The notes beneath the pieces were generated by a model. The model saw only the letters and a list, made by a program, of their open reading frames with translations, was not told the origin of the DNA and did no database searches. A DNA stretch of 24,540 nucleotides from Candidatus Thorarchaeota archaeon. GTDB lineage: Archaea > Asgardarchaeota > Thorarchaeia > Thorarchaeales > Thorarchaeaceae. The stretch lies in the NCBI GenBank assembly GCA_003345555.1, contig PRDJ01000043.1:1-24540 (forward strand), given 5' to 3'. How positions within the stretch are numbered: position 1 is the stretch's first letter; each line of letters begins with the position of its first letter. Positions 6,513 to 21,874 of the stretch are shown here, one piece after another. The position numbers and the translations under genes are program-made.

Positions 6513-6742
6513 TGCTCAACCTTCATTCGACCGGGCCACGGGTCGCTGGCCAGCGCTGACGAACCTGAAACTCGGATGCCCGACTCATGTTCACGATGAC
6601 ACTGCACAGTCAGAAGCAGTAACTTAAGCATTATGCAAACCCCATAGTGCTCGTTTCTTGTGTTACGGCATCTTTAAGAATCAAAGCGCCAATAACATGT
6701 TCTGTTAGCTCTCAGAAAAACGGAATGCAAGGAGGAACAGGT

Positions 6743-7453
6743 ATGGGCTCAGAGGGGATAATCGCCAAGCCATTCGACAAGAGGCACTTCCCCTCATGGG
6801 GTATCGTCGGATCTGTAATCGGCCTTGTCTCTATTATCGGAAGGATTCTGAATGTGGGAGGCTATTCGGAATTCGGATTCTTCGTCTCTATCTTGTCCGG
6901 TTTTGGATTGATACTCGCGGGTATCGCCTTCATCCCATTCATGATAGGACTTGGATGGTACATGGACTCGCGTTTCTCCACCTCGAAACTGGCCGCCATG
7001 GTTGGTATGTTCTATGCGAATGCGATGGTCTTCGTTGGCGTCTTCGAGACCATTTGGAGAGAGATCTGGATAGGCTGGTTGTCTTTTCTCTTCAGTGGCA
7101 TGATCATGACCGGACTGTGGACGACAGCCATTTTTCTCCAGCGCACAGTCAAAGCACACAGGCTACTTTCGCTGTTCGGGATAGTCGACATAGGGCTGTT
7201 CGCAGTCTTTCCTCTAGGATACTATCTTTCCACTATCTTCTATTTTCTGGACATGACTTCACGCGGGTTCCTCATCAGCCTCGGTCCGGGTTTCTGGTGG
7301 ATACACAGGATGGTATGGGTCCTCCACTTCGCGATTATGGGCTATATGTTGCTGCTCGCAATTCATATTCGCAGTGAAGAGAAAGAGACTCGAGAACCGT
7401 CCGTTATATTCCAACAATTCCCTAGCCAGACTCCACTGCCGACGTCGGGGTAG
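6743..7453 (+). CDS. DUF998-like polytopic membrane protein (single module)
   Basis: ATG 6743 lies 7 nt after GGAGG (6731-6735); the track start is 6647. It has about 6 hydrophobic helices and is clearly paralogous to the C-terminal half of the next gene (LAGIAFIPFMIGLG.Y.DSRF...KLAA.VG; FSGMIMTGLW...LQRT). Confidence 0.7.
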   Translation: MGSEGIIAKPFDKRHFPSWGIVGSVIGLVSIIGRILNVGGYSEFGFFVSILSGFGLILAGIAFIPFMIGLGWYMDSRFSTSKLAAMVGMFYANAMVFVGVFETIWREIWIGWLSFLFSGMIMTGLWTTAIFLQRTVKAHRLLSLFGIVDIGLFAVFPLGYYLSTIFYFLDMTSRGFLISLGPGFWWIHRMVWVLHFAIMGYMLLLAIHIRSEEKETREPSVIFQQFPSQTPLPTSG

Positions 7454-7602
7454 AATAATCAGACCAGCCTGTCAGAACGCAACCCTACTAAACCAAGACG
7501 CCTCCACATCTCTTCTGTATGCCAGGACAGACCAATATCCTTGCAGGCTGGGACCATTTAAGAGAACCTTTGATTCCGCAAGCCCTTGAGGGAATGCAGA
7601 TC

Positions 7603-8877
7603 ATGAAGTTCGGTATCCCCAAGTGGCCCTTGACAATATTGGGCGGATTCTTCGTTATCCTGCTCTACTGCTTGTTCACTTTTTCATCCTGGGCGCTCTA
7701 TCCTTTTCCATACAGCCCCATGACCAACTACCTGAGCAGACTGGGTGACTTGGTTTACAGTCCACTAGGTGGCAACTTCTACAATGCGGGATGTATCTTG
7801 ACAGGCATAGCACTCGTTCCCTTCTTCATAGGGCTTTATGCCTTGTATGCGGACAGCCTCGTGGAGAAGATTCTGATGATTGTAGGGCAAGTGTTGGGAT
7901 TGTGCTCAGCAGTCGCCCTCACTATGATTGGTGTTTTCTCTGAAGACACTGGAGCACCTCACATGCTTGCCTCGGCCGTGTTCTTCGAATTGTTGTTTGC
8001 AGTCATGATCTTGGTCAGTCTTGCTCTCTTCTTCCATCCGGGTTTAATGAAGGCTATAGCTCTTTACGGCCTGGTCATAGCGGTCTCCGATCTGGTCTTC
8101 TCCTTCTTGGTGGGGGGCCCGTTAGTAGAATGGTATGCAGTCTTCACCGCTCTGGGTTTCGTAGCACTCGTCTCATTGAGCACATCCAGAACAACGGGCA
8201 TGACATTCAGGCAGACAATCCTCAGGCTGTATGACAAAGGCCATTTCGCTCTGTGGGGAATCGCGGCATCTGTTACAGGCCTCGTCTTCATCCTGGGTGC
8301 AATGATCCCATATAGCGGACACAACGGCGAAGCATACTCCGTATTCAATCATTTTGTATCCGAGCTCGGGGAGATAGGAATCTCTGAGGCCGCTATGCTG
8401 TTCAATGTCGGCCTAGTACTTGCAGGCATCGCTTTCATTCCTTTCATGATAGGACTTGGCCTGTATCTTGACTCGCGATTCTACGTTGCGAAACTGGCGG
8501 CTGCGGTCGGTGTGTTCTCCTCAATCGCGATAATCTTCGTCGGCATATTCCCTATGAATTTCATTGCTCAGCACAGACTGTCGGCTCTGTCTTTCTTCTT
8601 TAGTGGAATGATCATGACTGGGTTGTGGATGATTGCCATTCTGCTTCAACGTACGCCAAGAGTCCACAAGCTGATTTCATTGGTCGGGCTGGTCAACGTT
8701 GTTGTCTTTGCAGCATTCATCTTCGGTAACTACGGCACCTACGACATATATGTGGACCGTCCTCCCTTCTGGTGGACCACGACCTTAGAGTGGGCAATCT
8801 ACTTCGCAATCATAGGGTTTCTGTTGTTGATGGCGCTGTACATCTGTAGAAGAGAAAGAGGAAATCCGACCCCGTAG
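7603..8877 (+). CDS. Membrane protein with two tandem DUF998-like modules
   Basis: Module 1: YSPMTNYLSRLG...FYNAGCILTG...LVPFFIGL...IGVFSE...H. Module 2: YSVFNHFVSELG...FNVGLVLAG...FIPFMIGL...VGIFPM...H. The likely start is ATG 7603 (or 7594) after GAGGGA; the track start is 7519. Confidence 0.72.
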   Translation: MKFGIPKWPLTILGGFFVILLYCLFTFSSWALYPFPYSPMTNYLSRLGDLVYSPLGGNFYNAGCILTGIALVPFFIGLYALYADSLVEKILMIVGQVLGLCSAVALTMIGVFSEDTGAPHMLASAVFFELLFAVMILVSLALFFHPGLMKAIALYGLVIAVSDLVFSFLVGGPLVEWYAVFTALGFVALVSLSTSRTTGMTFRQTILRLYDKGHFALWGIAASVTGLVFILGAMIPYSGHNGEAYSVFNHFVSELGEIGISEAAMLFNVGLVLAGIAFIPFMIGLGLYLDSRFYVAKLAAAVGVFSSIAIIFVGIFPMNFIAQHRLSALSFFFSGMIMTGLWMIAILLQRTPRVHKLISLVGLVNVVVFAAFIFGNYGTYDIYVDRPPFWWTTTLEWAIYFAIIGFLLLMALYICRRERGNPTP

Positions 8878-9036: not shown

Positions 9037-10152
9037 GTGGGAAATGAGAAGATGAATGGAGTAACTGACTCGAGCAAAGAGAGCGAGAACTCAGCGCCGC
9101 CCGTTGAGGAGAATCACTCTCTTGGCGGCTTGCTCTCCAAATTCGGAAGTGTGCTTACGAACTCTTACGTGAGATTCCTAGCTAGGAAAGCCGGCTTTTA
9201 CTTGGTCGTAGTGTTTCTTTCGATGGTGTTGGTATTTTTCATCATTGAATCGATGCCGGGTGATCCTGTTGCCGTAATGCTGGCAAGTGGAAACCCTCCA
9301 CCAGGTGTGGACATCAATGTCCTGGCGGACAAGATGAGGGATTACTTCGGTTTGGACAAACCGATCTTGGACCGGTTCTTCTTCTTCTTGGGCAACTTCT
9401 TCACATGGAATCTAGGGCCATCGTATCATTTCTATCCTGTGCAGGTGTCGACTATAGTCCTGTACTACTTGCCTTACACACTATCTCTGGCAATTCCCGT
9501 GCTCTTTGTTAGTTTCTTCGTGGGAAACTACGTTGGCGCCAGAGCGGCGTATATGAAGGGCAGGTTGAACGAAGCAGGTTACTTTGCTCTGGTCTTCTGC
9601 AATCAGCTGCCGCCTTTCTGGCTTGGATTGGTTGTCGTATTCACCTACGTGCTGTTGTTCCATGGCATTCCTCCAATTGGAGGCGTTACACTAGGCGTGA
9701 TTCCCTCCTTGAGCATCAGCTATTTTGTCGATTTGTTAGCCCACTGGATTCTGCCTTTCCTCACTCTACTAATCGTCTATGTGGGCGCATGGGCTACTGG
9801 CATGAGGTCAATGGTAACCCACGAAATGGATTCTGGCTACGTTCGCTACGGCGAGCAGCTAGGCTTCAAGAAAAGCAAACTGATGTCCTATGCTCAGAGA
9901 AACGCAATCCTCCCACAGTTCACTGGCCTAAACATGGTGTTCAATGGCATCGTCGGACAGACATTGGTAATCGAGATTGTTTTCGGGTGGCCCGGACTCG
10001 GCTTGTTGCTCTACAACGCTGTCTTCAATTATGACTATCCTTTGATTTTCGGCTGTTTCATGGTAATAATCATCATTATTGTCGCGGGCAACTTCCTGAT
10101 AGATGTCCTCTATGGGTTCTTAGACCCACGCATGCGAACTGGGTATGGGTGA
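9037..10152 (+). CDS. ABC transporter permease, OppB/DppB type
   Basis: MPGDPV, YFGLDKP, FFTWNLGPSY, YLPYTL, PPFWLG, EAA-loop equivalent SGYVRYGEQLG...RNAILPQ, IEIVFGWPGLG and DYPLIFG. The start is GTG 9037 or ATG 9052. Confidence 0.92.
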   Translation: MGNEKMNGVTDSSKESENSAPPVEENHSLGGLLSKFGSVLTNSYVRFLARKAGFYLVVVFLSMVLVFFIIESMPGDPVAVMLASGNPPPGVDINVLADKMRDYFGLDKPILDRFFFFLGNFFTWNLGPSYHFYPVQVSTIVLYYLPYTLSLAIPVLFVSFFVGNYVGARAAYMKGRLNEAGYFALVFCNQLPPFWLGLVVVFTYVLLFHGIPPIGGVTLGVIPSLSISYFVDLLAHWILPFLTLLIVYVGAWATGMRSMVTHEMDSGYVRYGEQLGFKKSKLMSYAQRNAILPQFTGLNMVFNGIVGQTLVIEIVFGWPGLGLLLYNAVFNYDYPLIFGCFMVIIIIIVAGNFLIDVLYGFLDPRMRTGYG

Positions 10153-10994
10153 TAGATGTGTGGGAGCTATTACTGAGAAGCCGGAAATTCATGTTCGGGC
10201 TGGCCGTCTTGATAAGTCTCATTCTGCTTGGAACGGTGGGACCCTGGCTGCTTGGAGACCCCTACTACATGAACCTGAGTCTTATCGGTCGGCCTCCTAG
10301 CCCTGAGCACTTGTTGGGTACGACAAGTTTCGGAGAAGATGTGTTTACTCAGCTATGCAACGCTATTGGCAACTCACTGGTGGTCGGTCTTATCGCTGGA
10401 GTATTAGGTACGCTGATAGCAGTCTTCGTAGGGGCAGTGGGTCCATATATAGGAGGGATGGCAGATAGAATCTCGAGTCTGGCTACCAATCTTGCCTTGG
10501 TTCTTCCCTTGATACCTCTATTCATAATCATCGCATCTGTCGTACGCGGACTGAATCTGGTTCTGATAGGGTTGATACTAGCCGCTACTTCTTGGCCGTG
10601 GGCCGCCAGGAGTATAAGATCGCAGGTACTCACCCTAAAAGAAAGGGAATACGTGAATCTGGCGCGTATGTCGGGGCAGAACAGCGTAGACATAGTGGTA
10701 ACGGAGGTTCTGCCGAACATGCTGGCTTACATCATGATGGTCTTTGTCATACTGACCGGGACGGCCATACTCGCCGAGTCAGCGCTCAGCATGATAGGCG
10801 TGTCCACGACGCGCACCATCACTTTGGGGTATATGCTCTACTGGGCCCAACACGAAACCACGGTCCCGTTCTGGTGGAATATCTGGTGGTGGTTCATTCC
10901 GCCTGGCATCGTCTTGACAGTATTGCTGACAGCCATCTTCGTCATCCACGCGGGCATGGATGAAATATTCAATCCAAGGTTGCGGGAGCTCTGA
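10149..10994 (+). CDS. ABC transporter permease, OppC/DppC type
   Basis: PPSPEHLLGTTSFGEDV, WPWAARSIRSQVLTLKEREYV, LPNM, LAESALS and WWWFIPPG. There is a 4-nt GTGA overlap with the previous stop. Confidence 0.92.
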   Translation: MIDVWELLLRSRKFMFGLAVLISLILLGTVGPWLLGDPYYMNLSLIGRPPSPEHLLGTTSFGEDVFTQLCNAIGNSLVVGLIAGVLGTLIAVFVGAVGPYIGGMADRISSLATNLALVLPLIPLFIIIASVVRGLNLVLIGLILAATSWPWAARSIRSQVLTLKEREYVNLARMSGQNSVDIVVTEVLPNMLAYIMMVFVILTGTAILAESALSMIGVSTTRTITLGYMLYWAQHETTVPFWWNIWWWFIPPGIVLTVLLTAIFVIHAGMDEIFNPRLREL

Positions 10995-11000
10995 TACCTC

Positions 11001-12011
11001 GTGGCGACACATATCCTCGAAGTCCAAGATCTCAGGGGCTACTATAGAGGTACATTCGGTGTCGTTCATGCCGTCGACGGTGTTTCGTTCACGGTGGACC
11101 GCGGCGTTGTAATGGGTATTGCAGGCGAGTCAGGCGGTGGTAAATCCACGCTCGCCCAACTTGTCTCGGGGTCACCACCTCCACTGCTACACCTTGAAGG
11201 AGGAACAATCCTCGTCGACGGAATTGACATCTACAGCATAAATCCCGAAGAACTCAGAACTGAAGTCAAATGCAAACGCATGTCCTACGTTCCTCAATCC
11301 TCAATGGAGTCTTTGAACCCCGTCAAAAGGATACGGGACTTCATCTTCGATGTGGTGAGACAACGCACAGGCAAGAGAATTGCCTCAAGCGAAGAGAAAG
11401 CAGAGGTTCTCGATATGGCTGCGAATCACATGAAGACGCTCGGATTGGACAGGCCGGTCTTAGATCGATACCCACACGAACTCAGTGGAGGCATGAAACA
11501 AAGGGTTGTAATTGCAGTGTCAACACTCTGGAATCCCAAGCTCCTCATAATAGACGAACCGACTTCCGCTCTTGATGTGACTTCACAAAAACGCATGATA
11601 GAAGCTCTGCTGAATCTGAAACGAGCGGGAACTATCGAGAGTATGTTGTACATATCTCACGACTTGACAAGTCTAAGACAACTATGCGGCGAATGCATAA
11701 TCATGTATGCAGGGAAAATCGCTGAAATAGGCGATATGGAGGAAACGATAGACAGCCCTCGGCATCCCTATTCACGTTTGCTTACAGCTGCAATCGCATC
11801 TTATGACTCAAAAGGAAGGAAAATGGGAGAATTGAAAAGCATCGCTGGATCGCCGCCCGACCTGAGAGACCCTCCGGCCGGCTGTAGATTCCATCCAAGA
11901 TGCCCCTACGTCATGGATATCTGTAGAACAAAGGAGCCTCCTATGTTCTGGGCAGGAGAGAGAAAGGGTGGAGCTTCTTGTTGGTTATTGACTTCACAAG
12001 CAGGGCAGTAG
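11001..12011 (+). CDS. ABC transporter ATP-binding protein, OppD/DppD type, with C-terminal Cys cluster
   Basis: Walker A GESGGGKST, Q-loop YVPQ, signature YPHELSGGMKQR, Walker B LLIIDEPT, H-loop ISHD, HPYS and C-terminal GCRFHPRCPYVMDIC...ASCWL. Confidence 0.95.
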   Translation: MATHILEVQDLRGYYRGTFGVVHAVDGVSFTVDRGVVMGIAGESGGGKSTLAQLVSGSPPPLLHLEGGTILVDGIDIYSINPEELRTEVKCKRMSYVPQSSMESLNPVKRIRDFIFDVVRQRTGKRIASSEEKAEVLDMAANHMKTLGLDRPVLDRYPHELSGGMKQRVVIAVSTLWNPKLLIIDEPTSALDVTSQKRMIEALLNLKRAGTIESMLYISHDLTSLRQLCGECIIMYAGKIAEIGDMEETIDSPRHPYSRLLTAAIASYDSKGRKMGELKSIAGSPPDLRDPPAGCRFHPRCPYVMDICRTKEPPMFWAGERKGGASCWLLTSQAGQ

Positions 12012-12012
12012 C

Positions 12013-12834
12013 ATGGACGACACTTCTGAAACAGGAAACAACGGAATTGTCCTCAAGTGTGAAGGGCTGACCAAGCTATACACCTCTGGCCTGATAAGGA
12101 CGAAGACAGTTACGGGTGCGAAAGACGTAAGCTTCGGCATAAAGAGGGGGGAGATTGTCTCTCTCGCAGGTGAAAGTGGTAGCGGAAAATCAACCGTAGC
12201 TAGGATGATCCTCAGATTGATAAAGCCGACATCGGGCAGTATCACCTTGAATGGGAGAAGCATCTATTCATATGACATTCGAGAATACTACCGGCAGGTA
12301 CAAGCGGTGTTTCAAGACCCGTACTCAGCCTTCAATCCGTTCTATACTGTCGACCACGTCATGGAAAGGGCTTTTGGCCTCCGCGAAGGCAGCATCGACC
12401 CTGACGAAAAGGATAAGATAATCCAGTCTACGCTTGAGTCGATCGGACTAAACCCTAGTGAAGTCTTGGGCAGGTATCCACACGAATTGAGCGGCGGCCA
12501 AATGCAGCGCATGCTCATTGGTAGATCCCTTCTCATCGGTTCACAGCTACTGATAGCAGATGAACCTACCAGCATGATAGATGCATCGACACGGGCTGGA
12601 GTGTTGAACCTGCTTCTTAGTCTGAAGAAAGACAAAGGGTTGTCCGTGTTGTTCATAACTCATGATATCGGTCAAGCTCAATATGTATCGGAGAGAGTTC
12701 TTGTGATGAAGCAAGGCGAAGTGGTCGAACAGGGCCCTGTTGATGAGGTCTTCATTAGACCAAAACATCCGTACACAAAAGAGCTCCTTGCGGCTGTCCC
12801 TACTCTCTACGAAAGATGGGATACATGCAGATAG
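12013..12834 (+). CDS. ABC transporter ATP-binding protein, OppF/DppF type
   Basis: GESGSGKST, FQDPY, YPHELSGGQMQR, LLIADEPTS, ITHD and PKHPYTKELL. It starts 1 nt after the previous stop. Confidence 0.95.
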   Translation: MDDTSETGNNGIVLKCEGLTKLYTSGLIRTKTVTGAKDVSFGIKRGEIVSLAGESGSGKSTVARMILRLIKPTSGSITLNGRSIYSYDIREYYRQVQAVFQDPYSAFNPFYTVDHVMERAFGLREGSIDPDEKDKIIQSTLESIGLNPSEVLGRYPHELSGGQMQRMLIGRSLLIGSQLLIADEPTSMIDASTRAGVLNLLLSLKKDKGLSVLFITHDIGQAQYVSERVLVMKQGEVVEQGPVDEVFIRPKHPYTKELLAAVPTLYERWDTCR

Positions 12835-12996
12835 GCACCTTCCATTAACCGGGAGAAACATATCCGTCGGTAAAGATTCGCTCCTAGTCTTGTGCGTGAA
12901 TCGAACCGGACCAGTAATGTGATCAAGGCTCGGAGAGTACAGTGTGATGGTCCCTGCCACAGAAAGAAGCAGCGTACCGCGGCAAGAACAGAACAA

Positions 12997-13110
12997 TGAT
13001 TTACAAAAGTGAATCAGAGCAACGATTCTTTCGCCGCAACCCGAAAAGAACAAGGCAACACTTAAATAACGCATGTGGTCATACAAACTATTCGCGGAGT
13101 ACTTAGGAGG
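12997..13110 (+). promoter_or_regulatory. Candidate internal promoter of the binding-protein gene, with upstream inverted repeat and strong SD
   Basis: TGATTTAC-AAAA-GTGAATCA (12997-13016, 7/8 match), TATA-like TTAAATA (13062-13068) and AGGAGG (13105-13110), all within a 288-nt gap. Confidence 0.4.
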
Positions 13111-13122
13111 AAATAAAACTAA

Positions 13123-15105
13123 GTGAACAGAGCAGTTAAGATTGTATCCGCCATGGCTATTGCAGTCATGGTGGCTGCAATGGCCTTTTCCAGTGTCAAT
13201 GTGAGGCCAGTCCTCGCCCAAGCGAGCGTTCCTAGAAACGAAACGGTCTGGGGGGCTGGCTTCGGTATGAACACTGGAAGCTATCAACCATGGAACATGG
13301 GCTCAAACCAAGGCTGGACAACCTACCTTATGTATGAACCCTTGTTCGGGACTAACGTAGCAACAGGAGAAATCATTGGTTGGCTAGGTGATACTATCGC
13401 TTGGCAGGGCACTGACACTATACAGATAACACTGAGAAGCGATCTTCACTGGACTTCCATAGGCAGCAGCCTCGTTAGCAACACCACAGCGATAACGACG
13501 GATGATGTCATCTACTCGTTTGAGATTCTTCAGCAGACCGGTCAACTGGGTTCCCTTGTACAGAGAGTGGGAAATGTCAGTACTGCCTTCGAGAAAGTGA
13601 GTAACACAGTACTGAAGGTGCACATATTACCGCTATACGAAGGAAGCAGTGAGGTGTACCGCCAACTGACATATGGCTTTCTCATATTCCCCAAGGCCGT
13701 CTGGCAAGATATCAATACGACAAATGCTGGCGACCTCTCAACCTATACGAATGATTGGCTAGATACCGTAGCGGTTCCAGCCAAGTGGAGAGTAGCGTCT
13801 GGAATGTACTTACCGTACTATCACGATGCTACAACCACGATTGGTAAGGTTAACGCGAACTGGTGGGGAGTAAATGACACAGACTTCGGCAGATTGCCTA
13901 AACCAAACTACTTTGGATACACATCGTACTCAAGTAACGACCTTGCACTTCTTGCTATGGAAGGTGGAAATCTCGATTGGGATGGCAATTATCTTGCAGG
14001 ATTGACTGAAGTCAAGGCACAATACCCGAACGTCGTCACCTACTTTGATGATTTGCCATATTTCCCAGACAAGTCACCGGTTATGCTTGTTCCGAACCAC
14101 AGGAACTACCCGCTGAATCAGACTTGGCTCCACAAGGCTATGGCTTCTGTGCTGAACTACTCGGCCATGAGTGCCGTTTCCAGCGGCTACTTGAAGAACC
14201 CTAGCCCTATGCTGATTCCAGCAGACGATGCATCGGCCAGAGCACTATTGAATACGACAATCGAAGCCAAGTACGCGATTACTTACAATGTAGCCTATGC
14301 GCTTGGAATCCTAAACACATACTGCAACTTCGATGAAGCATCCGGAGTATGGTGGACAAAGCAAGGAGTCACACCCAGCGATCCTATCAAGCACTATCCA
14401 CTCCAAGAGTGGAACTATGAATCTAATACGACCGCTCCGTGGACTATCTTAGACTTCCTCGGATGGACAGACGTTGATGCTATGGACGCCGTAGCAGCCC
14501 AGCTATTCTCCAGTCTGCTCCACATAAACACACAAGTGGAACTGATTAGCGGCTGGGGTACCGTTCAGGTAAGGATGAACAATTTCCAGTACGATCTTGC
14601 TGACATGGTCATGTCCGGGCAGATAAACATGAACATGTATGAACGCTACTTCCAGATGTTCTCCCCAGAGAGCTCTAGCGCGGGTGGAGGGGTAAATGCT
14701 CCTCTAGGCGGCTGGTATAACCAAACATTCATTGACGACATAGAGGAACTTGATACACATCCTGCCGGCTCTGCCGCGCAATGGGCTGTCGCTAACGAGA
14801 TGCAAGAGATTCTCGGTCAAGTCATGCCTGTCATTCCATTGGCAGGACACGCTGACTGGCAAATCTATAGCACTACGTACTGGAAGAACTGGCCAAACAG
14901 TGTAACCAATCCAATGCTACCAAGCAGTCCCTTCGCTGGCACCACACAGAACGCAAATCTGCTTGCGATTGTCTTCGCCTTGAACTCAACAGGGGCTACA
15001 ACGGTTCTACCGCCGGACTACACGCTCCTCATAGTTGGAGGAGTAGCAGTAGTCGCAGTGCTAGCTATAGTCATTGTGCTGTACATGCGTAGACCTAGCA
15101 AGTAA
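13123..15105 (+). CDS. ABC transporter substrate-binding protein, family 5, cellobiose/oligosaccharide-binding (CbtA/TmCBP-like) type
   Basis: Signal peptide, PRNETVW, YEPLF, ITTDDVIYSF, SGMY, NANWWG, NYPLNQTWLHKAMA, MPVIPL, YSTTYWKNWP and a C-terminal TM anchor followed by RR. The position next to GH94/GH1 genes supports a sugar substrate. Confidence 0.85.
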   Translation: MNRAVKIVSAMAIAVMVAAMAFSSVNVRPVLAQASVPRNETVWGAGFGMNTGSYQPWNMGSNQGWTTYLMYEPLFGTNVATGEIIGWLGDTIAWQGTDTIQITLRSDLHWTSIGSSLVSNTTAITTDDVIYSFEILQQTGQLGSLVQRVGNVSTAFEKVSNTVLKVHILPLYEGSSEVYRQLTYGFLIFPKAVWQDINTTNAGDLSTYTNDWLDTVAVPAKWRVASGMYLPYYHDATTTIGKVNANWWGVNDTDFGRLPKPNYFGYTSYSSNDLALLAMEGGNLDWDGNYLAGLTEVKAQYPNVVTYFDDLPYFPDKSPVMLVPNHRNYPLNQTWLHKAMASVLNYSAMSAVSSGYLKNPSPMLIPADDASARALLNTTIEAKYAITYNVAYALGILNTYCNFDEASGVWWTKQGVTPSDPIKHYPLQEWNYESNTTAPWTILDFLGWTDVDAMDAVAAQLFSSLLHINTQVELISGWGTVQVRMNNFQYDLADMVMSGQINMNMYERYFQMFSPESSSAGGGVNAPLGGWYNQTFIDDIEELDTHPAGSAAQWAVANEMQEILGQVMPVIPLAGHADWQIYSTTYWKNWPNSVTNPMLPSSPFAGTTQNANLLAIVFALNSTGATTVLPPDYTLLIVGGVAVVAVLAIVIVLYMRRPSK

Positions 15106-15115
15106 GAATGAGAGA

Positions 15116-15151
15116 GGAGGTTGTTGATGCAAATCACAACCTTCTTTTTTT
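15116..15151 (+). terminator. Intrinsic-terminator-like hairpin with GCAA tetraloop and T7 tract
   Basis: GGAGGTTG(T)TGAT-GCAA-ATCACAACCTTC forms 12 pairs (one G-U) with one bulge, followed by TTTTTTT (15145-15151). It starts 11 nt after the binding-protein stop. A second IR, CTTTGT-N7-ACAAAG, lies at 15152-15170. Confidence 0.75.
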
Positions 15152-15214
15152 CTTTGTTGGACGTACAAAGCTCACCATGTCTTTTTGGGTGTTTCCCTAT
15201 TCTTGTAAGTTGCC

Positions 15215-17659
15215 TCATGAAATCGTTACCTTCACTTTGACGTCGGTCTTGCCAGCTGGAGGAATTGGAAGGATGTTGCCCTCCAGTTGTTTTCCATCCA
15301 CTACCACAGAAGCGACATTTCCTCTGCCAGCTCGCTCAACATCGATGTGATAAGATATACCGCGGTATTTCCTTATGGCTTGGAATCCCTTCCATTTCGA
15401 GGGAATTACGGGAGCGATTCTTAACCCTTTGAGCGTGGGGGAAATTCCAAGGATATGCTGTGTGATAGCGACATAGTTCCATGCCGCTGTTCCCGTCAGC
15501 CACGAGTTCTTTGCTTCCCCATGAGTTGGAGCGTCGTGACCAGCTATCATCTGGGCATACACGTATGGTTCGCAGCGATGCAGTTCGCCTATTCCTTCTC
15601 GTGCCGATGGGTTAATCTTGAGATAGTATTCATGAGCTCGGTCCCCGTCTCCAACCAGCGTTTCTGCGATCATAATCCATGGATTGTTATGGCAGAAAAT
15701 CCCCGCATTCTCTTTGTATCCTGGAGGGTAAGACGAGATTTCGCCGTATTCTGCAAAGTACCGTGAATATGCAGGCTGAAGAAGCACTATGCCGTGGTTT
15801 GTGTCTAATCGTTGTTTTACGGAGTCAAGAGCTTTTTTCGCTAGCCCATCGTCGAGTCCAATGCCTGCCATGGGGCAAATGCCTTGTGGCTCGATGTATA
15901 TCTGCCCTTCTTGGCACTCCTTCGAGCCCACTTTTCTGCCGAAGTCGTCATATGCACGTATGAACCAGTTCCCGTCCCATCCATACTTATGGATTGTATC
16001 ATCCATCTTTCTCGCCTCTTCTTCATACATACTCGCCTCACTGGCAAGACCACGAGCCTCTGCAAGGTCGGCAATTTCTGTGCAGGCTAGCACAAAAAGG
16101 CCAGCAATAAAGACGGACTCGGCAATCTTGCCATCCTTATTGGTAGTAGTCTGAAAGGACTGGCCTGGCGTGTCAGAGAAGCAGTTCAGATTCAAGCAGT
16201 CATTCCAATCCGCACGCCCTATGAGCGGCAGGCCGTGCGGCCCGAGCCTACCAAGAGTGTAGTGAATGCTCTTCTGAAGGTGATCATCTAGAGGCCTTTC
16301 CGTACCAGACTTGTTTTCGTAGGGAACTCGTTCTTCGAGAATCGACCAGTCGCCAGTCTCCTTGATAAAGGCCGAGACTGCTAGGATGAGCCAAAGGGGA
16401 TCGTCATTGAAGTTGCTGCCAATGTCATTATTCCCGCGTTTTGTCAACGGTTGGTATTGGTGAAATGCACCGCCATTCTGTAGCTGTGTAGCAGCCAAAT
16501 CGAGGATACGCTCGCGAGCACGCTTGGGTACCATCTGGACAAATCCCAAAAGGTCCTGATTAGAATCGCGGAAGCCAAGGCCGCGCCCGATGCCAGACTC
16601 ATAGAACGATGCTGAGCGTGATACGTTAAAAGTCGCCATGCATTGGTATGGGTTCCAAATGTTCACCATGCGGTTGGTATGAACGTCAGGTGTTTCAACA
16701 TGAACAATCGAGAGTAGCTCATCCCAGTATTCCTTTAGGGACTGAAAAGCTGCATCAGCATTCCTTGGGACTAGCAGCCTGGCTATGATGGGTCTCACTG
16801 TTCGTTTGTCGATAATCTGTGAATCTTGTGGGAAGAATTTCTTATCCTTTGGATTCTCGTGGTAACCAAGAAGAAAGATGATTTGCCGGGATTCTCCTGG
16901 CTTGAGTTGAAGCTCTACATGATGGGATCCGATTGGTGACCATCCGCAAGCCACCGAGTTCGTCGTTCGCCCCCGTTGCACAGCCTCAGGGTTATCCCAG
17001 CCGCGATAGGCACCAAGGAAGGCCTCACGCTGCGTTTCAAACCCAGCGAGTTTCTCTGAACAGGCAAAATAGGCAAAGTGATTGCGGCGTTCACGATACT
17101 CCGTCTTGTGGTAGATGACGCCGTTCTCAATTTCCACCTGGCCCGTATTGAAGTTGCGTTGGAAGTTGGTTTGATCGTCTAACGCGTCCCACAGACAGAA
17201 TTCAATCAGAGAGAACACGGAAATACTTGCAGTTTCTTCTCTGTGATTCGTTATCGTCAACTGCCAAATCTCAAGGTTTTCGCCAAGCGGTACGAAGTAT
17301 CTTGTCTGGGCCTCTATTCTCCTATAGGTGGAGCCAATTATGGTGTAACCCATGCCATGACGACAGACGTAGCCCTCTGCTTCGTGACGTGTTGGCATCC
17401 AGGATGGAGACCAAAACTCGCCACTCTTGTTATCACGTATATAGACGTATCTCCCGCCAGAATCGAACGGCACATTGTTGTAGCGATAGCGGGTTATGCG
17501 CCTCTGTCGAGCATCTTTATAGAATGAGTATCCTCCCGCTGTGTTTGAGATAATGCCGAAGTACTCCTCGCAGCCGAGGTAGTTTATCCAAGGTAAGGGA
17601 GTATCCGGTCGAGTAATCACGTACTCTCGGCGCTCATCATCGAATTCTCCGAAACGCAT
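15215..17659 (-). CDS. cepA: Cellobiose phosphorylase, GH94
   Basis: [85 protein letters not shown], catalytic [45 protein letters not shown] and [21 protein letters not shown] lies 5 nt upstream. Confidence 0.9.
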
Positions 17660-17850
17660 GCCATATCACCCCAATCTAGATTGCCTTGTTGTTTCCGAAT
17701 TAGCTGCTTGCCAATCGTAAGTAAAGACTGCTTCCTGGAAGACCTCGATGTGCCGCAGGGATTCAATAACCTTGGAGGCCCACATGAACTCACTCTGAAT
17801 TTGCGCCGAACGGCTCGATTCTATCTCCTCGAATAGGGCTAGACCGTTCC

Positions 17851-17904
17851 ATATATACAAAACGATTTATCGGACAGTCTTCACTTTAATTGGAACATTA
17901 AGTG
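17851..17904. promoter_or_regulatory. Back-to-back TATA-like elements of the divergent GH94 pair, plus imperfect palindrome
   Basis: TATATA-like element at about 17851-17856 (for the minus-strand gene) and CAAAACG+ATTTATC at about 17858-17871 (for the plus-strand gene). CACTTTAAT-TGGAAC-ATTAAGTG lies at 17882-17904. Confidence 0.4.
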
Positions 17905-17975
17905 GAGAGAATCGATTCAGCTTCGAATCTGGGACTCAGAAAACAGACCACATGCCACGGCAGGAGAGGTGCTGA

Positions 17976-20333
17976 ATGAAATACGGCTATTTTGATGACG
18001 CAAGAAAGGAGTATGTAATAACCAATCCTGCGACACCTACCCCATGGATTAACTATCTAAGCAACAGTGAGTACTGCGCCATGATTTCCAATACGGCAGG
18101 GGGATACAGCTTCCACATAGACCCGAAAGATAGAAGGATTCTCCGGTACAGGTACAACAACTTGCCGCCAGACAGACCAGGTAGATACCTGTACGTTAGA
18201 GACAACAAGACAGGGAAGTATTGGTCTCCAACATGGCAACCAGTTCCCAAGAAACTTAGCACATATGAGTGCAGACATGGGCTCGGGTATACAAGAATCT
18301 CATCTTCGTACGACGGTGTCGAAGCTGAGGCTACATACTTTGTGCCCTTGGATGAGAACTTGGAGATTTGGATGCTGACCTTGAAAAATGCTGCCAGCCA
18401 AGAAAAAGAGTTGACCGTCTTTTCATATGCTGAGTTTTGTCTCTGGCATGCAGACCGTGACCAGAATGACCTCCAATCGATTCAAGGAGTGGGTGTGGCT
18501 AAGTATGAGGAAGGAGTTGTCTTCCATCACTTCTTCGATCTAAGCACTGGATATGCTTTCTTCTTCTCAAGTGGCAAAGTGACAGGATATGATTGCAGTA
18601 GAGAGGAGTTCATTGGGCCCTATCGATCCGAATCCAATCCTTTAGCTGTCGATAGGGGCCAATGCTTTGACTCCGGAAGTCTTGGGGGCAATCCTATAGC
18701 CGCTACCAGCAATCCCGTGAGATTGTCTCCCGGACAAGCAGAGACAATAATCTTCGTTCTAGGTGTGGCAAAAGAGAAACCCGAAGCTAAGAAGTGCATC
18801 CAGAAACTCAGACAAAAGAGCGCTGTGGACAAGGAGTTCCGGAGGCTAGGCGAGTACTGGGACACTTTTCTCGCCAAATTCACAGTGGATACTCCAGACA
18901 AAGAATTCGATTCACTCGTTAGTGTTTGGAATCAGTATCAGTGCAGGACAACCTTCGACTGGTCCAGATACGTTTCTTTCTATGAAACAGGCATAGGAAG
19001 AGGAATGGGTTTCAGAGACTGCAATCAGGATACGTTAGGTGTGGTTCACGCTATCCCCGAAAGGGTGCGCAGGCGCATCCTTGATCTCACCAAGAATCAA
19101 TTCAAAGATGGCCATGCCTACCACATCTACTATCCTCTCACCGGGGAGGGAGGCTTCCCCAACTACGCAAAAGAAAAGATGCGATTCTTTAGCGACGATC
19201 ACCTTTGGTTGATTCTTTCGGTCTGTGAGTATATCAAAGAGACAGGAGACTTGGCCATTCTAAGCGAGAATGTCAACTTCGTCGACGGCTCAAGTGCCAG
19301 CCTGTATGAGCACCTGAAAAGGGCGCTGGACTTCACGCTTGGCACGATGGGAAGTCATGACTTGCCTCTCTTGGGCACCGCTGACTGGAATGATCCCTTA
19401 AGCTTGCCCGGCCCCAACGATGCCGCAGAGAGTGTGTTCGTAGCGATGCTATTCCATAAGGTTCTACTGGAACTTAGCGAACTCTGCAAAGAGCACAGCC
19501 ATGATGAAGACAGCAAAAGGTATGTGACCATAGCTGAAAAGACGAAAGCGCACGTGAATGAAATCGCGTGGGACGGGAACTGGTACATACGTGCGTTTGA
19601 CGACTCGGGAAACCCCGTAGGGAGTTCAAAATGCACGGAGGGCAAGATATACATCAACACTCAATCGTGGGCTGCAATCAGCGAAATCGCTACAAAAGAA
19701 AGAGCTATACAATGCATGGACTCGGTGAGAGAATATCTGGACACCGAATACGGTTTGATGCTTCTTGCTCCGCCCTACTCAACATTCCGTCCCGACATAG
19801 GAGCGCTTAGCAGCTATGTTCCCGGGTTGAAGGAAAATGCGTCCATCTGGAGTCACGTTAATGCCTGGGCGATTATAGCAGAATGCATTCTCGGGCGCGG
19901 GGATCAAGCCTACGAGTACCACAAGAAGATCTCTCCTCCTGCAAAGAACAGAATAGCTGAGATCCACAGAGCCGAGCCATACGTCTATGCTCAAACAATG
20001 GCCGGCAAGAGTCACCCAGACTTCGGCGCAGCCCGCCAGTCATGGCTTACTGGAACTGCATCATGGATGATGAAGACTGCTACAAATTGGATTCTGGGCA
20101 TAAGACCACAATACCACGGATTGCTGGTGGACCCATGCATACCAAAGATCTGGCCGAAATTCACTGTCACTCGTCATTTCCGAGGAGCCAGTTATGAGGT
20201 CAAAGTTGAAAATCCGCATCGTGTGTCAAAGGGAATAGAGGATGTAAGAGTAGACAACAGAAGGCTGGAGACAAGCGTCTTGCCTGCGTTCGCTGATGGA
20301 AAGAAGCACGTAGTGGCAATCACTATGGGATGA
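17976..20333 (+). CDS. Second GH94 glycoside phosphorylase, most similar in motifs to short (CepB-type) cellodextrin phosphorylase
   Basis: [75 protein letters not shown], catalytic ADWND, KENASIWSH and SWLTGTASW. SD GAGGTG is at 17966-17971. GH94 membership is secure; the substrate is inferred. Confidence 0.85.
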   Translation: MKYGYFDDARKEYVITNPATPTPWINYLSNSEYCAMISNTAGGYSFHIDPKDRRILRYRYNNLPPDRPGRYLYVRDNKTGKYWSPTWQPVPKKLSTYECRHGLGYTRISSSYDGVEAEATYFVPLDENLEIWMLTLKNAASQEKELTVFSYAEFCLWHADRDQNDLQSIQGVGVAKYEEGVVFHHFFDLSTGYAFFFSSGKVTGYDCSREEFIGPYRSESNPLAVDRGQCFDSGSLGGNPIAATSNPVRLSPGQAETIIFVLGVAKEKPEAKKCIQKLRQKSAVDKEFRRLGEYWDTFLAKFTVDTPDKEFDSLVSVWNQYQCRTTFDWSRYVSFYETGIGRGMGFRDCNQDTLGVVHAIPERVRRRILDLTKNQFKDGHAYHIYYPLTGEGGFPNYAKEKMRFFSDDHLWLILSVCEYIKETGDLAILSENVNFVDGSSASLYEHLKRALDFTLGTMGSHDLPLLGTADWNDPLSLPGPNDAAESVFVAMLFHKVLLELSELCKEHSHDEDSKRYVTIAEKTKAHVNEIAWDGNWYIRAFDDSGNPVGSSKCTEGKIYINTQSWAAISEIATKERAIQCMDSVREYLDTEYGLMLLAPPYSTFRPDIGALSSYVPGLKENASIWSHVNAWAIIAECILGRGDQAYEYHKKISPPAKNRIAEIHRAEPYVYAQTMAGKSHPDFGAARQSWLTGTASWMMKTATNWILGIRPQYHGLLVDPCIPKIWPKFTVTRHFRGASYEVKVENPHRVSKGIEDVRVDNRRLETSVLPAFADGKKHVVAITMG

Positions 20334-20397
20334 GTCCGATTTGTCGATGAGTCTCTATTAGGACGAGATGACCAGCTGCATTAGGCTATCGTTGGCT

Positions 20398-21771
20398 TCA
20401 ATGCTTGTTGCCTACTAGAGTTGCTGCATGTTTCTTGTATTCATTCAATGTCTTGGCTGTTATTCCATTGTTCATGATAATGTCTCTGTAGACGTATGCG
20501 CTTGGTCGGCTTTTGCGTTTCAGTGTCTTGTAGTCTACCTCGACCAGCCCGAATCTTTTGTTGAATCCAGAGTTCCACTCAAAGTTGTCCATAAGCGACC
20601 AGTAGTAGTATGCCCGGACATCCGCTCCCAGTTCAGTAATCGCCCGGTGAACCTGTTCAAGGTGAAGGACTATGAACATTGACCTGATTTTGTCATCGTG
20701 AACTGCGGTCCCGTTTTCAGTAATGTAGATGGGTTTACCGTAGCTTTTCAACCACTTGAGGAGTTCATAGATTCCTTGTGGGTAAATCTCCCAACCCATG
20801 TCTGTTTCACCAAGAGAGTCTTTTCTTGGTGGTGCCGTGCTTTTATTTGGGTGATTCCTTACTCGCTCTCCAACTAGTCTACGAGTATAGTAGTTGAATC
20901 CTAGGAAATCCCACGTGTCCTCTACAGTGGGGATGAGTTCTCCTTGTCCCATCGGCGGACCGATTCTTCCCGTATCTATGGCGTCCAAGAATGATGCATT
21001 GTAGGATTGATGAAGCGAAGCCGCTTCATTTCTGTCCTCAGGTGATTCCTCGTCAAATGCTTGGAAGTAGGTCATGTCTTTGACAGTTCCCACCTTAGGT
21101 GCGTCCTTTGTACGGTTCTTGCCCAGAACGTCATGTATTGCATGGTACGCTTCCGCGTGTGCTAACAGCATATGTCTAAGCACAAGTCCGTACTTGCTTG
21201 GGTCTTTTTCACATGGGGGGAATTTGCCGTGCATATACGACATGGATGCGTAAGCCGTTGGCTCGTTTATCGCAGTCCAAATACCTACAAGGTCTCCAAG
21301 TTTCTCAGCCAAGTACGAAGTGTAGCGCCCAAAGAGCTCCACAGACCTCGAGTCAGGCCAGCCACCGCCTGCTTCCATCCATATAGGATTCGTAAAGTGA
21401 TGTAGCGTGATAAGGGGCTCCAAACCCCGCCTCCTGATGGCTTTCAAAACCATGCGATAGTGTTCGATTTCTCTGGCGTTCCATTCACCTTCTCCGGGTT
21501 CTATCCGGCTCCACTCGACTGAGAAACGGAAAGTGTTGTGCCCGAGTTCTTTTGCCAGATCGAGATCGTGTTCATACAAGTGATAGAAGTCATCCGCTCT
21601 TCCAGACACTGAGCCATCTACTATGTTACCAGGTTGCTTCTCCCATTCGGTCCACTGATTGTTGTTCCCACCCTCGGTTTGGTGCGCGGAAATTGCTGAC
21701 CCCCAAAGGAAGTCTGGTGGAAATTGTAGAAGGGGCTCCTCTTCTCTCTGGTAAGCGGGCATCTTGTCCAT
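20398..21771 (-). CDS. Glycoside hydrolase family 1 beta-glucosidase/beta-glycosidase, cytoplasmic
   Basis: FPPDFLWGSAISAHQTEG, FRFSVEWSRIEP, ITLHHF, acid/base INEP, GFNYY, nucleophile ITENG and WSLMDNFEW. It has no signal peptide. SD spacing favours ATG 21762 as the start. Confidence 0.93.
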   Translation of the reverse strand: MDKMPAYQREEEPLLQFPPDFLWGSAISAHQTEGGNNNQWTEWEKQPGNIVDGSVSGRADDFYHLYEHDLDLAKELGHNTFRFSVEWSRIEPGEGEWNAREIEHYRMVLKAIRRRGLEPLITLHHFTNPIWMEAGGGWPDSRSVELFGRYTSYLAEKLGDLVGIWTAINEPTAYASMSYMHGKFPPCEKDPSKYGLVLRHMLLAHAEAYHAIHDVLGKNRTKDAPKVGTVKDMTYFQAFDEESPEDRNEAASLHQSYNASFLDAIDTGRIGPPMGQGELIPTVEDTWDFLGFNYYTRRLVGERVRNHPNKSTAPPRKDSLGETDMGWEIYPQGIYELLKWLKSYGKPIYITENGTAVHDDKIRSMFIVLHLEQVHRAITELGADVRAYYYWSLMDNFEWNSGFNKRFGLVEVDYKTLKRKSRPSAYVYRDIIMNNGITAKTLNEYKKHAATLVGNKH

Positions 21772-21835: not shown

Positions 21836-21874
21836 TATCACTTAGGAACTGAGTGATATTCCGCTTTATAGCGG
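21836..21874. promoter_or_regulatory. Candidate operator TATCACT-N9-AGTGATA adjacent to a bidirectional TATA-like element
   Basis: Perfect 7-bp IR at 21836-21842 and 21852-21858, and CCGCTTTATAGCGG at 21861-21874. The exact 12-mer AAGGAAGACTAT occurs at 21827-21838 and 21894-21905. Confidence 0.5.

Follow-up and report, generated by a model that had tools for sequence, protein, structure and literature searches.

We analysed a 24,540 bp stretch of DNA (the window), which is the whole of contig PRDJ01000043.1 (C43) in the assembly GCA_003345555.1 of a Candidatus Thorarchaeota archaeon (2.28 Mb in 82 contigs, estimated to be 93.5% complete). Positions 9037-21771 hold eight genes separated by short gaps: five for an importer, two for phosphorylases of glycoside hydrolase (GH) family 94, here called GH94_1 and GH94_2, and one for a GH1 enzyme. 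The locus is likely to function in beta-glucoside utilisation, and our explanation taken as a whole, including a role for GH94_2, is that it probably gives this wetland Thorarchaeote a cytoplasmic, ATP-sparing route for the use of beta-glucosides, most likely cello-oligosaccharides. The specific role proposed for GH94_2, acting on substrates whose +1 glucose is substituted at the anomeric carbon, is a tentative part of this explanation to which we give slightly less than even weight. Judged from residue states and tree position, what is new here is that the classical pair of cellobiose phosphorylase (CBP) and cellodextrin phosphorylase (CDP) is replaced by a bacterial-type CBP and a CBP-sized GH94 of an archaeal clade with CDP-like or non-CBP acceptor states, though the general idea is already in print.

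In the mechanism that we propose, an Opp/Dpp-type importer would bring in soluble gluco-oligosaccharides with beta linkages that other organisms produce, using a binding protein tethered outside the cell through a C-terminal anchor. GH94_1 would convert cellobiose and phosphate to glucose-1-phosphate and glucose, and GH94_2, in which the -1 and phosphate sites are kept and the residues and loop that close the CBP pocket are lost, would most likely release glucose-1-phosphate from substrates with an anomerically substituted +1 glucose, such as cellotriose, longer dextrins or other beta-glucosides. GH1 would hydrolyse the remainder, and a phosphoglucomutase encoded elsewhere in the genome would pass glucose-1-phosphate to glycolysis. 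An earlier sequence-only reading of the window had suggested energy-saving phosphorolysis of imported beta-glucosides, and the design of the locus appears to fit that suggestion, with the substrates being predicted. The features concerned are as follows (lengths in amino acids, aa):

9037-10152, plus strand: OppB-type permease, 371 aa, about six hydrophobic segments; Pfam BPD_transp_1 at 115 bits; 74-78% identity to Thorarchaeota loci
10149-10994, plus strand: OppC-type permease, 281 aa; BPD_transp_1 at 62 bits and OppC_N; 82-84% identity to Thorarchaeota loci
11001-12011, plus strand: OppD-type ATPase, 336 aa; ABC_tran and oligo_HPY; 75-83% identity to Thorarchaeota loci
12013-12834, plus strand: OppF-type ATPase, 273 aa; ABC_tran and oligo_HPY; 76-81% identity to Thorarchaeota loci
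13123-15105, plus strand: family-5 solute-binding protein, 660 aa; SBP_bac_5 at 33.4 bits (cut-off 32.4); 85-88% identity to Thorarchaeota orthologues
15215-17659, minus strand: GH94_1, bacterial-type canonical CBP by sequence, 814 aa; Pfam supersandwich domain at 309 bits and catalytic domain at 544 bits
17660-17975: divergent intergenic region between GH94_1 and GH94_2, 316 bp, with a conserved A/T-rich box near 17852-17870
17976-20333, plus strand: GH94_2, short-loop GH94 phosphorylase of an archaeal clade, 785 aa; supersandwich domain at 271 bits and catalytic domain at 510 bits
20398-21771, minus strand: GH1 beta-glucosidase, predicted to be cytoplasmic, Asgard type, 457 aa; Glyco_hydro_1 at 325 bits
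21836-21858: palindrome TATCACT-N9-AGTGATA, a putative operator, between the GH1 gene and a divergent GNAT gene

Pfam and motif checks recovered all eight genes where the sequence-only reading had placed them, with DWND, the phosphate-site His, SWLTGT and NEP/ENG intact. Both phosphorylases carry PF06165 and PF17167 (271-544 bits), the N-terminal supersandwich and (alpha/alpha)6 catalytic domains expected of GH94, and the motifs DWND (GH94_1 residue 484, GH94_2 residue 470), GIGRG, KEN..H with its phosphate-site His (H657 and H627) and SWLTGT (719 and 689). They are 47-48% identical to each other, and a search of the genome (2.28 Mb, 93.5% complete) found no further GH94 gene. A signal-like segment was found in none of GH94_1, GH94_2 and GH1. 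That reading had also called the locus complete, which overstates its content: phosphoglucomutase, kinase and secreted endoglucanase genes are all missing from the locus itself.

CBPs (EC 2.4.1.20) were recognised by R166 and Q165, which the neighbouring subunit contributes, by E649, Y653, N667 and a pocket-closing loop at 495-509, and by high identity to characterised CBPs. Residues were mapped through alignments to CgCBP, CtCBP and VpChBP and through a 96-sequence alignment, and CBP positions are given throughout in Cellulomonas numbering. GH94_1 matches the Clostridium thermocellum CBP 3qde over its full length at 1149 bits and 3rrs, also over its full length, at 1068 bits, and it retains N163, Q165, R166, E649, Y653, H666 and N667, that is, all of the closed-pocket states, together with the 495-509 loop (25 residues after the catalytic Asp). 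Its nearest named relatives are from Anaerolineales and other bacteria (75-76% identity), and it is nested among bacterial CBPs next to Anaerolineales with support of 97 in the Shimodaira–Hasegawa-like approximate likelihood ratio test (SH-aLRT). The bacterial nesting and the retained pocket residues and loop identify GH94_1 as what is, by prediction, a canonical CBP of bacterial origin; the earlier assignment of one of the two GH94 enzymes as a cellobiose phosphorylase is thus borne out by bit score, residues and loop.

GH94_2 scores 777 bits against CBP and 622 bits against the Vibrio chitobiose phosphorylase (ChBP), and the solved CDPs (5nz7, 8h6h and 8xi1) match its residues 482-782 only, at 96-98 bits. 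CDPs of the CepB/Cdp type (EC 2.4.1.49) are about 980-1010 aa long, have an additional N-terminal domain and belong to the CDP clade; GH94_2 has 785 aa, and the extra domain is absent. It departs from CBP in having S168, A610 and V628 and a loop of 10 residues where CBP has 25, and from ChBP (EC 2.4.1.280) in having Tyr and Ala where 1v7v has V631 and F627, while its EPYVYAQ and SWLTGT motifs follow CBP, not ChBP.

The differences from CBP lie in the acceptor site, in a pocket that spans the dimer interface. GH94_2 has retained the catalytic Asp D473, W471 and the phosphate and -1 residues R331, R342, H627, Q673 and T692; in CBP numbering the kept sites are R351, R362, W488, D490, Y653, H666, Q712 and T731, with Y614 standing at the Y653 position, and Q167 likewise keeps the Q165 position. 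Four positions are substituted (N163 to D165, R166 to S168, E649 to A610 and N667 to V628), and the loop after the catalytic Asp is 15 residues shorter than that of CBP. Throughout the archaeal clade to which GH94_2 belongs, position 163 is always Asp; position 649 is mostly Gly or Ala and in a few members Asp, Ser or Thr; position 667 is Ala, Thr, Ser or Val (Ala in most members, Val in the window); and position 166 is Ser in Thorarchaeota, the window included, Tyr in the Loki group and Trp, Phe, Tyr or Cys in Bathyarchaeia.

These states can be set beside published work on CBP and CDP. CDPs have been reported to carry Asp at 163 and Ala at both 649 and 667, to lack the 495-509 loop, which blocks subsites +2 and +3, and to have an aromatic residue at the R166 position as a fingerprint of the +2 subsite (PMC7471185, Ubiparip et al. 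2020). The changes N163D, E649G, N667A and T508I let CBP accept cellobiose, and R166Y inactivated an engineered CBP, which the authors read as a sign that R166 is important for CBP activity (PMC7471185). Within the 495-509 loop, S497G raised cellotriose phosphorolysis 5.7-fold (PMC10572201). With the CDP states taken as published, GH94_2 shows Asp at 163, Ala at 649 and absence of the loop, with Val at 667 and Ser at 166. From its residue changes and loop loss, GH94_2 looks like a CBP-sized enzyme whose acceptor site is no longer built for a free anomeric hydroxyl, and a role in trimming cellodextrins is plausible. The CepA/CepB-like pair that the sequence-only reading had seen here does not stand in the family sense, as there is no CDP of about 1000 aa and the solved CDPs reach only about 98 bits; what stands is that the discriminating residues are in CDP or non-CBP states.

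The archaeal clade is supported by an SH-aLRT value of 100 and contains sequences from Bathyarchaeia and from the Thor, Hermod, Loki, Heimdall, Odin and Hod groups. GH94_2 falls outside the main Thorarchaeota group, with which it shares 64-65% identity, and forms a trichotomy with that group and a group from Bathyarchaeia, to which its identity is 74-75%. In 33 archaeal loci, a gene of the GH94_2 type repeatedly adjoins the same Opp-type importer and a beta-glucosidase of family GH116, GH3 or GH1. The gene orders are:

Thorarchaeota and Hermodarchaeota: Lrp, (GH3), GH94, permeases, ATPases, binding protein, GH116
Bathyarchaeia: GH130, GH94, importer, some loci also having an aldo-keto reductase and GH1
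Loki: importer, helix-turn-helix regulator, aldo-keto reductase, GH130, rhomboid, GH94, sometimes GH1

In the window this order is rearranged to importer, binding protein, CBP, GH94_2 and GH1, without Lrp and without GH116; the counterpart of the 9037-10152 permease in the Thorarchaeota loci is the permease directly 3' of the GH94 gene. A survey of 400 Asgard genomes, in which the two GH94 types were told apart by their identity to GH94_1 (canonical 56-69%, short-loop 42-49%), recovered GH94 in 45. Both types occurred together in 27 of the 400 (27 of the 45 GH94-positive genomes), across several families, and in 13 of these 27 the two copies lay on one contig within 16 kb. Within the Thorarchaeota family, 13 of 85 genomes had GH94, and a canonical-like copy was present in just one besides this genome. 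The pairing that the sequence-only reading had put forward as an undescribed system is accordingly not unique, although no characterisation of an archaeal GH94 locus was found in the literature. A literature search also found no characterised member of the archaeal short-loop clade. We suggest, with slightly less confidence than we give to the role of GH94_2 itself, that this clade may represent a new specificity class: CBP-sized enzymes with an open, CDP-like cleft that arose independently of the CDP lineage, acting natively as cello- or gluco-oligosaccharide phosphorylases partnered with an Opp-type importer, to which CBPs from bacteria would have been added on repeated occasions for the final step on cellobiose.

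One GH94 of each type is also found in two cellulolytic clostridia. In Pseudobacteroides cellulosolvens (L083, 10001-13848) and in a second locus, L077, a canonical CBP is accompanied by a short-loop GH94 of about 785 aa that belongs to a separate bacterial clade. The P. cellulosolvens short-loop gene has directly 3' of it a gene for a 494-aa protein that matches only the GH3 N-terminal domain in Pfam, and the neighbours of the clostridial short-loop genes include an AraC regulator. The GH94 genes of the Pseudobacteroides and Anaerobacterium genomes comprise CBP, the short-loop enzyme, a cyclic-glucan-synthase type and two odd frames of 733-774 aa, with no CDP among them, and no characterised member of the clostridial short-loop clade was found. 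We rejected a transfer of function from the neighbours of the clostridial genes to the archaeal clade, as the clostridial clade sits on a long branch.

The five importer genes have the composition of an Opp/Dpp importer (PepT; Transporter Classification, TC, 3.A.1.5), with two BPD_transp_1 permeases, two oligo_HPY ATPases and a family-5 binding protein. The binding protein has hydrophobic segments at residues 1-19 (N-terminal, signal-like) and 628-646 (a C-terminal membrane anchor), and a C-terminal anchor is usual for archaeal Opp-class sugar binders. Among solved structures it is related only to five Opp-family binders from Thermotoga (E 1e-22 to 1e-18), of which one was deposited under the name of a mannoside sugar-binding protein. 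The constant linkage of the gene to glycoside enzymes fits a sugar ligand, and the product of 13123-15105 is a probable beta-gluco-oligosaccharide binder. The view of the importer as a sugar uptake system, already put forward from the letters of the window, agrees with its resemblance to known sugar-binding Opp systems. A second family-5 binding protein is encoded at 4659-6512 on the minus strand (Pfam 190 bits), with a signal-like N-terminus and a C-terminal anchor; no transporter genes lie beside it, and no relatives of it were found in the GH94 loci.

The GH1 enzyme carries the acid/base Glu in NEP at 169 and the nucleophile Glu in TENG at 351, aligns to Pfam over positions 4-452 of 453, in keeping with a full-length TIM barrel, and has no hydrophobic segment. 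It scores 301 bits against the Pyrococcus horikoshii beta-glucosidase 1vff, and its nearest named relatives are from Atabeyarchaeia (64-68%). Elsewhere, the genome holds three phosphoglucomutase/phosphomannomutase (PGM/PMM) genes and a second GH1.

Several observations weigh against the explanation offered here. The window GH94_2 has Ser at the R166 position and not the aromatic CDP fingerprint. ChBP, a disaccharide-specific enzyme, is likewise short-looped, so the loop alone is no proof of an open site. The CDP residue states come from one paper rather than from a CDP sequence, and the inactivation of an engineered CBP by R166Y (PMC7471185) implies that single positions do not transfer simply between backgrounds. 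In Bathyarchaeia and Loki, the loci often include GH130 as well, a hint at oligosaccharides that contain mannose, and the binding protein resembles solved sugar binders weakly (E about 1e-22). A search of the genome, 93.5% complete, found no GH9 and only a weak partial match to GH5, and no glucokinase was found with the ROK, ADP-dependent or Glk-type families, yet the proposed activity of the locus would release free glucose. Since GH9 was not found and GH5 is only weakly represented, the organism probably scavenges soluble oligosaccharides freed by others and does not attack cellulose itself.

The matches to RNA libraries count in favour of the explanation, with the limit that the runs consist of assembled contigs and so speak for presence only, not for expression level or transcript ends. 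Read in this way, contigs from two wetland metatranscriptomes of different studies cover 13107-15043, in the binding-protein gene, with no mismatch, and contig depth in the RNA libraries is 20-69 on that gene as against 9 or less elsewhere in the 18.5 kb compared. Short contigs also fall on and near the ATPase gene 11001-12011, at 10966-11193 (X7) and 10770-11034 (X8), and short pieces match GH94_2 (18892-19095), GH1 (21351-21589) and part of the 4659-6512 gene. Parts of the locus without such contigs give no evidence of silence.

An unlikely alternative is that GH94_2 is a disaccharide phosphorylase for another reducing-end sugar (Glc-beta-1,4-Man from glucomannan, Glc-beta-1,4-Gal or another glucoside) and that the locus serves mixed hemicellulose oligosaccharides. 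GH130, the beta-mannoside phosphorylase family, adjoins the GH94_2-type gene in 8 of the 33 archaeal loci, all of them from Bathyarchaeia or Loki; the changed residues of GH94_2 are all in the acceptor site; a mannoside binder is among the solved relatives of the binding protein; and other GH94 disaccharide specificities are known from sequence-space exploration, for example the Paenibacillus polymyxa glucosylgalactose phosphorylase. However, no GH130 was found in this genome, the Thorarchaeota loci and the window pair the GH94_2-type enzyme with beta-glucosidase families only, and the changes in GH94_2 correspond to those by which CBP becomes open to acceptors with a substituted anomeric carbon (PMC7471185).

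It is improbable that GH94_1 and GH94_2 are simply redundant CBPs, the bacterial copy being a recent addition without division of labour. Such redundancy would agree with the horizontal acquisition of GH94_1, with the catalytic, -1/phosphate and Y653 residues kept in both enzymes and with the presence of only the short-loop type next to the importer in most Thorarchaeota. Both types have nevertheless been kept repeatedly, in 27 Asgard genomes of several families and in the two cellulolytic clostridia, which argues against simple redundancy, and GH94_2 lacks R166 and E649, the former a residue that the authors of the inactivating R166Y change stress for CBP activity (PMC7471185). Least credible, and to our minds scarcely tenable, is a chitobiose (GlcNAc-GlcNAc) phosphorylase in a locus for chitin or N-glycan fragments: GH94_2 reaches 622 bits to the Vibrio ChBP and its post-catalytic loop shows a gap of four residues against ChBP as compared with a 15-residue shortfall against CBP, but the Tyr and Ala of GH94_2 at the Y653 and E649 positions are Val and Phe in ChBP, EPYVYAQ and SWLTGT follow CBP, CBP outscores ChBP in both halves of GH94_2, and genes for GlcNAc deacetylase, kinase and deaminase are absent from all archaeal loci compared.

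The contig is native Thorarchaeota (Asgard) DNA carrying a mosaic sugar island. Thorarchaeota and Hermodarchaeota loci match the five importer genes at 74-88% identity, and for the DUF998 gene on the flank the best matches (72-78%) are in a same-genus genome (G003). Another same-genus genome (G002) is that of Thorarchaeota archaeon OWC3 (contig PRDI01000079), and a same-family genome (G020) is that of Thorarchaeota QM1B.10. The archaeal host proposed by the sequence-only reading is thus upheld by the importer, the DUF998 flank and the same-genus genomes, where a bacterial contig would have spoken against the whole scheme; a misbinned Bathyarchaeia contig was likewise rejected, as the importer and the DUF998 flank are Thorarchaeota-like. 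No 16S rRNA gene was found in the genome, so its taxonomy rests on other evidence, namely the same-genus genome with a named Thorarchaeota record. The tetranucleotide correlation of the contig with the genome is 0.94, compared with 0.97-0.98 for contigs of similar size, a slightly low value that is expected because of the mosaic island. Two contigs of about 21-22 kb (C40 and C51) have a GC content of 0.552, against about 0.51 for the genome, and tetranucleotide correlations of 0.77-0.81 with the rest of the bin, and are probably contaminants.

The order of the window, with ATPases, binding protein, CBP and GH94_2, recurs on an independent contig (L093) that comes from another run and has 81% nucleotide identity, so that an assembly chimera can be dismissed. 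Among public sequencing runs, wetland metagenomes are the best sources of this DNA, and one ENA contig of 29,820 bp (P0241), from a near-identical strain, carries a 98% identical GH1 and about 5 kb more context than the window. By identity and tree position, the history of the locus is a mixed one: the importer is native, the CBP bacterial, the GH1 of Asgard type and GH94_2 closer to Bathyarchaeia than to its own genus.

The intergenic region 17660-17975 shares 83% identity with its counterpart on the syntenic contig L093, making it as conserved as coding DNA; its best-kept parts are the stretch adjoining the CBP start and an ATATA(C/A)AAAACGATTT box. The palindrome TATCACT-N9-AGTGATA at 21836-21858 is a perfect one and had one match in the window and none in 100 shuffles, and four loosely similar sites were detected in the genome (C33, C36, C43 and C50). 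It is a possible operator, and an operator common to the promoters of the locus was rejected, as the palindrome is seen upstream of GH1 only.

On the other flank, 7519-8877 encodes a DUF998 membrane protein of 452 aa with 12 segments that seems to have arisen by fusion of two halves, each of about 220 aa. The halves match separate open reading frames (ORFs) of about 200-260 aa in same-genus and same-family genomes, and the ORF upstream of the DUF998 gene (6647-7453) is a paralogue of its C-terminal half (51% identity).

Parts of this picture have been predicted before. CBP genes were inferred in Lokiarchaeia in 2018 (10.1101/385732), a GH94-like transcript was reported in a Lokiarchaeon in 2019 (10.1101/826495) and a probable cellobiose porter of the PepT family was reported in Thor in 2021 (PMC7997004). 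GH94 is missing from the families for which a 2023 survey lists characterised cellulolytic enzymes of archaea (PMC10267330), and in the table of characterised phosphorylases of a 2022 review, the archaeal entries found by term search are GT35 alpha-glucan enzymes only (PMC8950772). Our literature search found no paper joining GH94 with Asgard archaea and no characterised archaeal GH94. The novelty that the sequence-only reading had claimed is therefore reduced by the predictions of Asgard CBP genes (2018-2019) and of a Thor cellobiose importer (2021), and holds in that no characterised archaeal locus was found in the literature.

Anoxic sediments and wetlands are rich in Asgard archaea and Bathyarchaeia, whose use of plant carbon has been inferred almost wholly from annotation. 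The locus offers a concrete, testable module that consists of an importer, a pair of dissimilar GH94 enzymes and a GH1, in which each phosphorolytic cut would save one ATP for an energy-limited anaerobe. Its mosaicism illustrates, on a small scale but clearly, how gene flow between domains shapes Asgard metabolism, and the short-loop archaeal clade may supply a natural catalyst of compact size with which to make or trim defined cello-oligosaccharides of the kind sought by CBP mutagenesis.

Among known systems, those of clostridia (C. stercorarium CepA/CepB, C. thermocellum Cbp/Cdp and the Ruminiclostridium cellulolyticum cua cluster with CbpA) are alike in joining a cellodextrin ATP-binding cassette (ABC) importer to cytoplasmic GH94 phosphorolysis, yielding glucose-1-phosphate without ATP cost (PMC5663094), and GH94_1, at 1149 bits to CtCBP, is of orthologue grade to their CBP. 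The window differs in lacking a CepB/Cdp-type enzyme, its second phosphorylase being CBP-sized and of an archaeal clade, and in having an archaeon as host. Its importer is of the Opp/Dpp type with a C-terminally anchored binder, whereas the cua importer is of an ABC type with no ATPase gene in the cluster (PMC5663094).

Pyrococcus furiosus CbtABCDF with CelB (TC 3.A.1.5.14) is alike in being a PepT/Opp-family importer for beta-glucosides in an archaeon. Its downstream chemistry is hydrolytic and uses GH1 only, whereas in the window two phosphorylases would precede GH1. The Opp-family sugar binders of Thermotoga provide all of the solved relatives of the window binding protein, at low similarity (E 1e-22 to 1e-18).

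Genomic counterparts are the loci of Thorarchaeota, Bathyarchaeia and Loki (L013-L039 and L067), which share the GH94 clade and the importer family, with Thorarchaeota importer genes 74-88% identical to those of the window. Unlike the Thorarchaeota loci, the window has its GH94 after the binding protein, a bacterial-type CBP and a GH1 in place of GH116 and no adjacent Lrp, and its GH94_2 lies outside the main Thorarchaeota subclade. A further counterpart is an engineered one: the Cellulomonas uda CBP variant OCP2 (N156D, N163D, T508I, E649G and N667A) uses cellobiose as acceptor and makes cellotriose (PMC7471185), and the clade of GH94_2 naturally has Asp at 163, mostly Ala or Gly at 649 and a small residue at 667 and is without the loop that bears T508. 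GH94_2 differs from OCP2 in being a natural enzyme that is about 47% identical to CBPs and in which R166 is also replaced.

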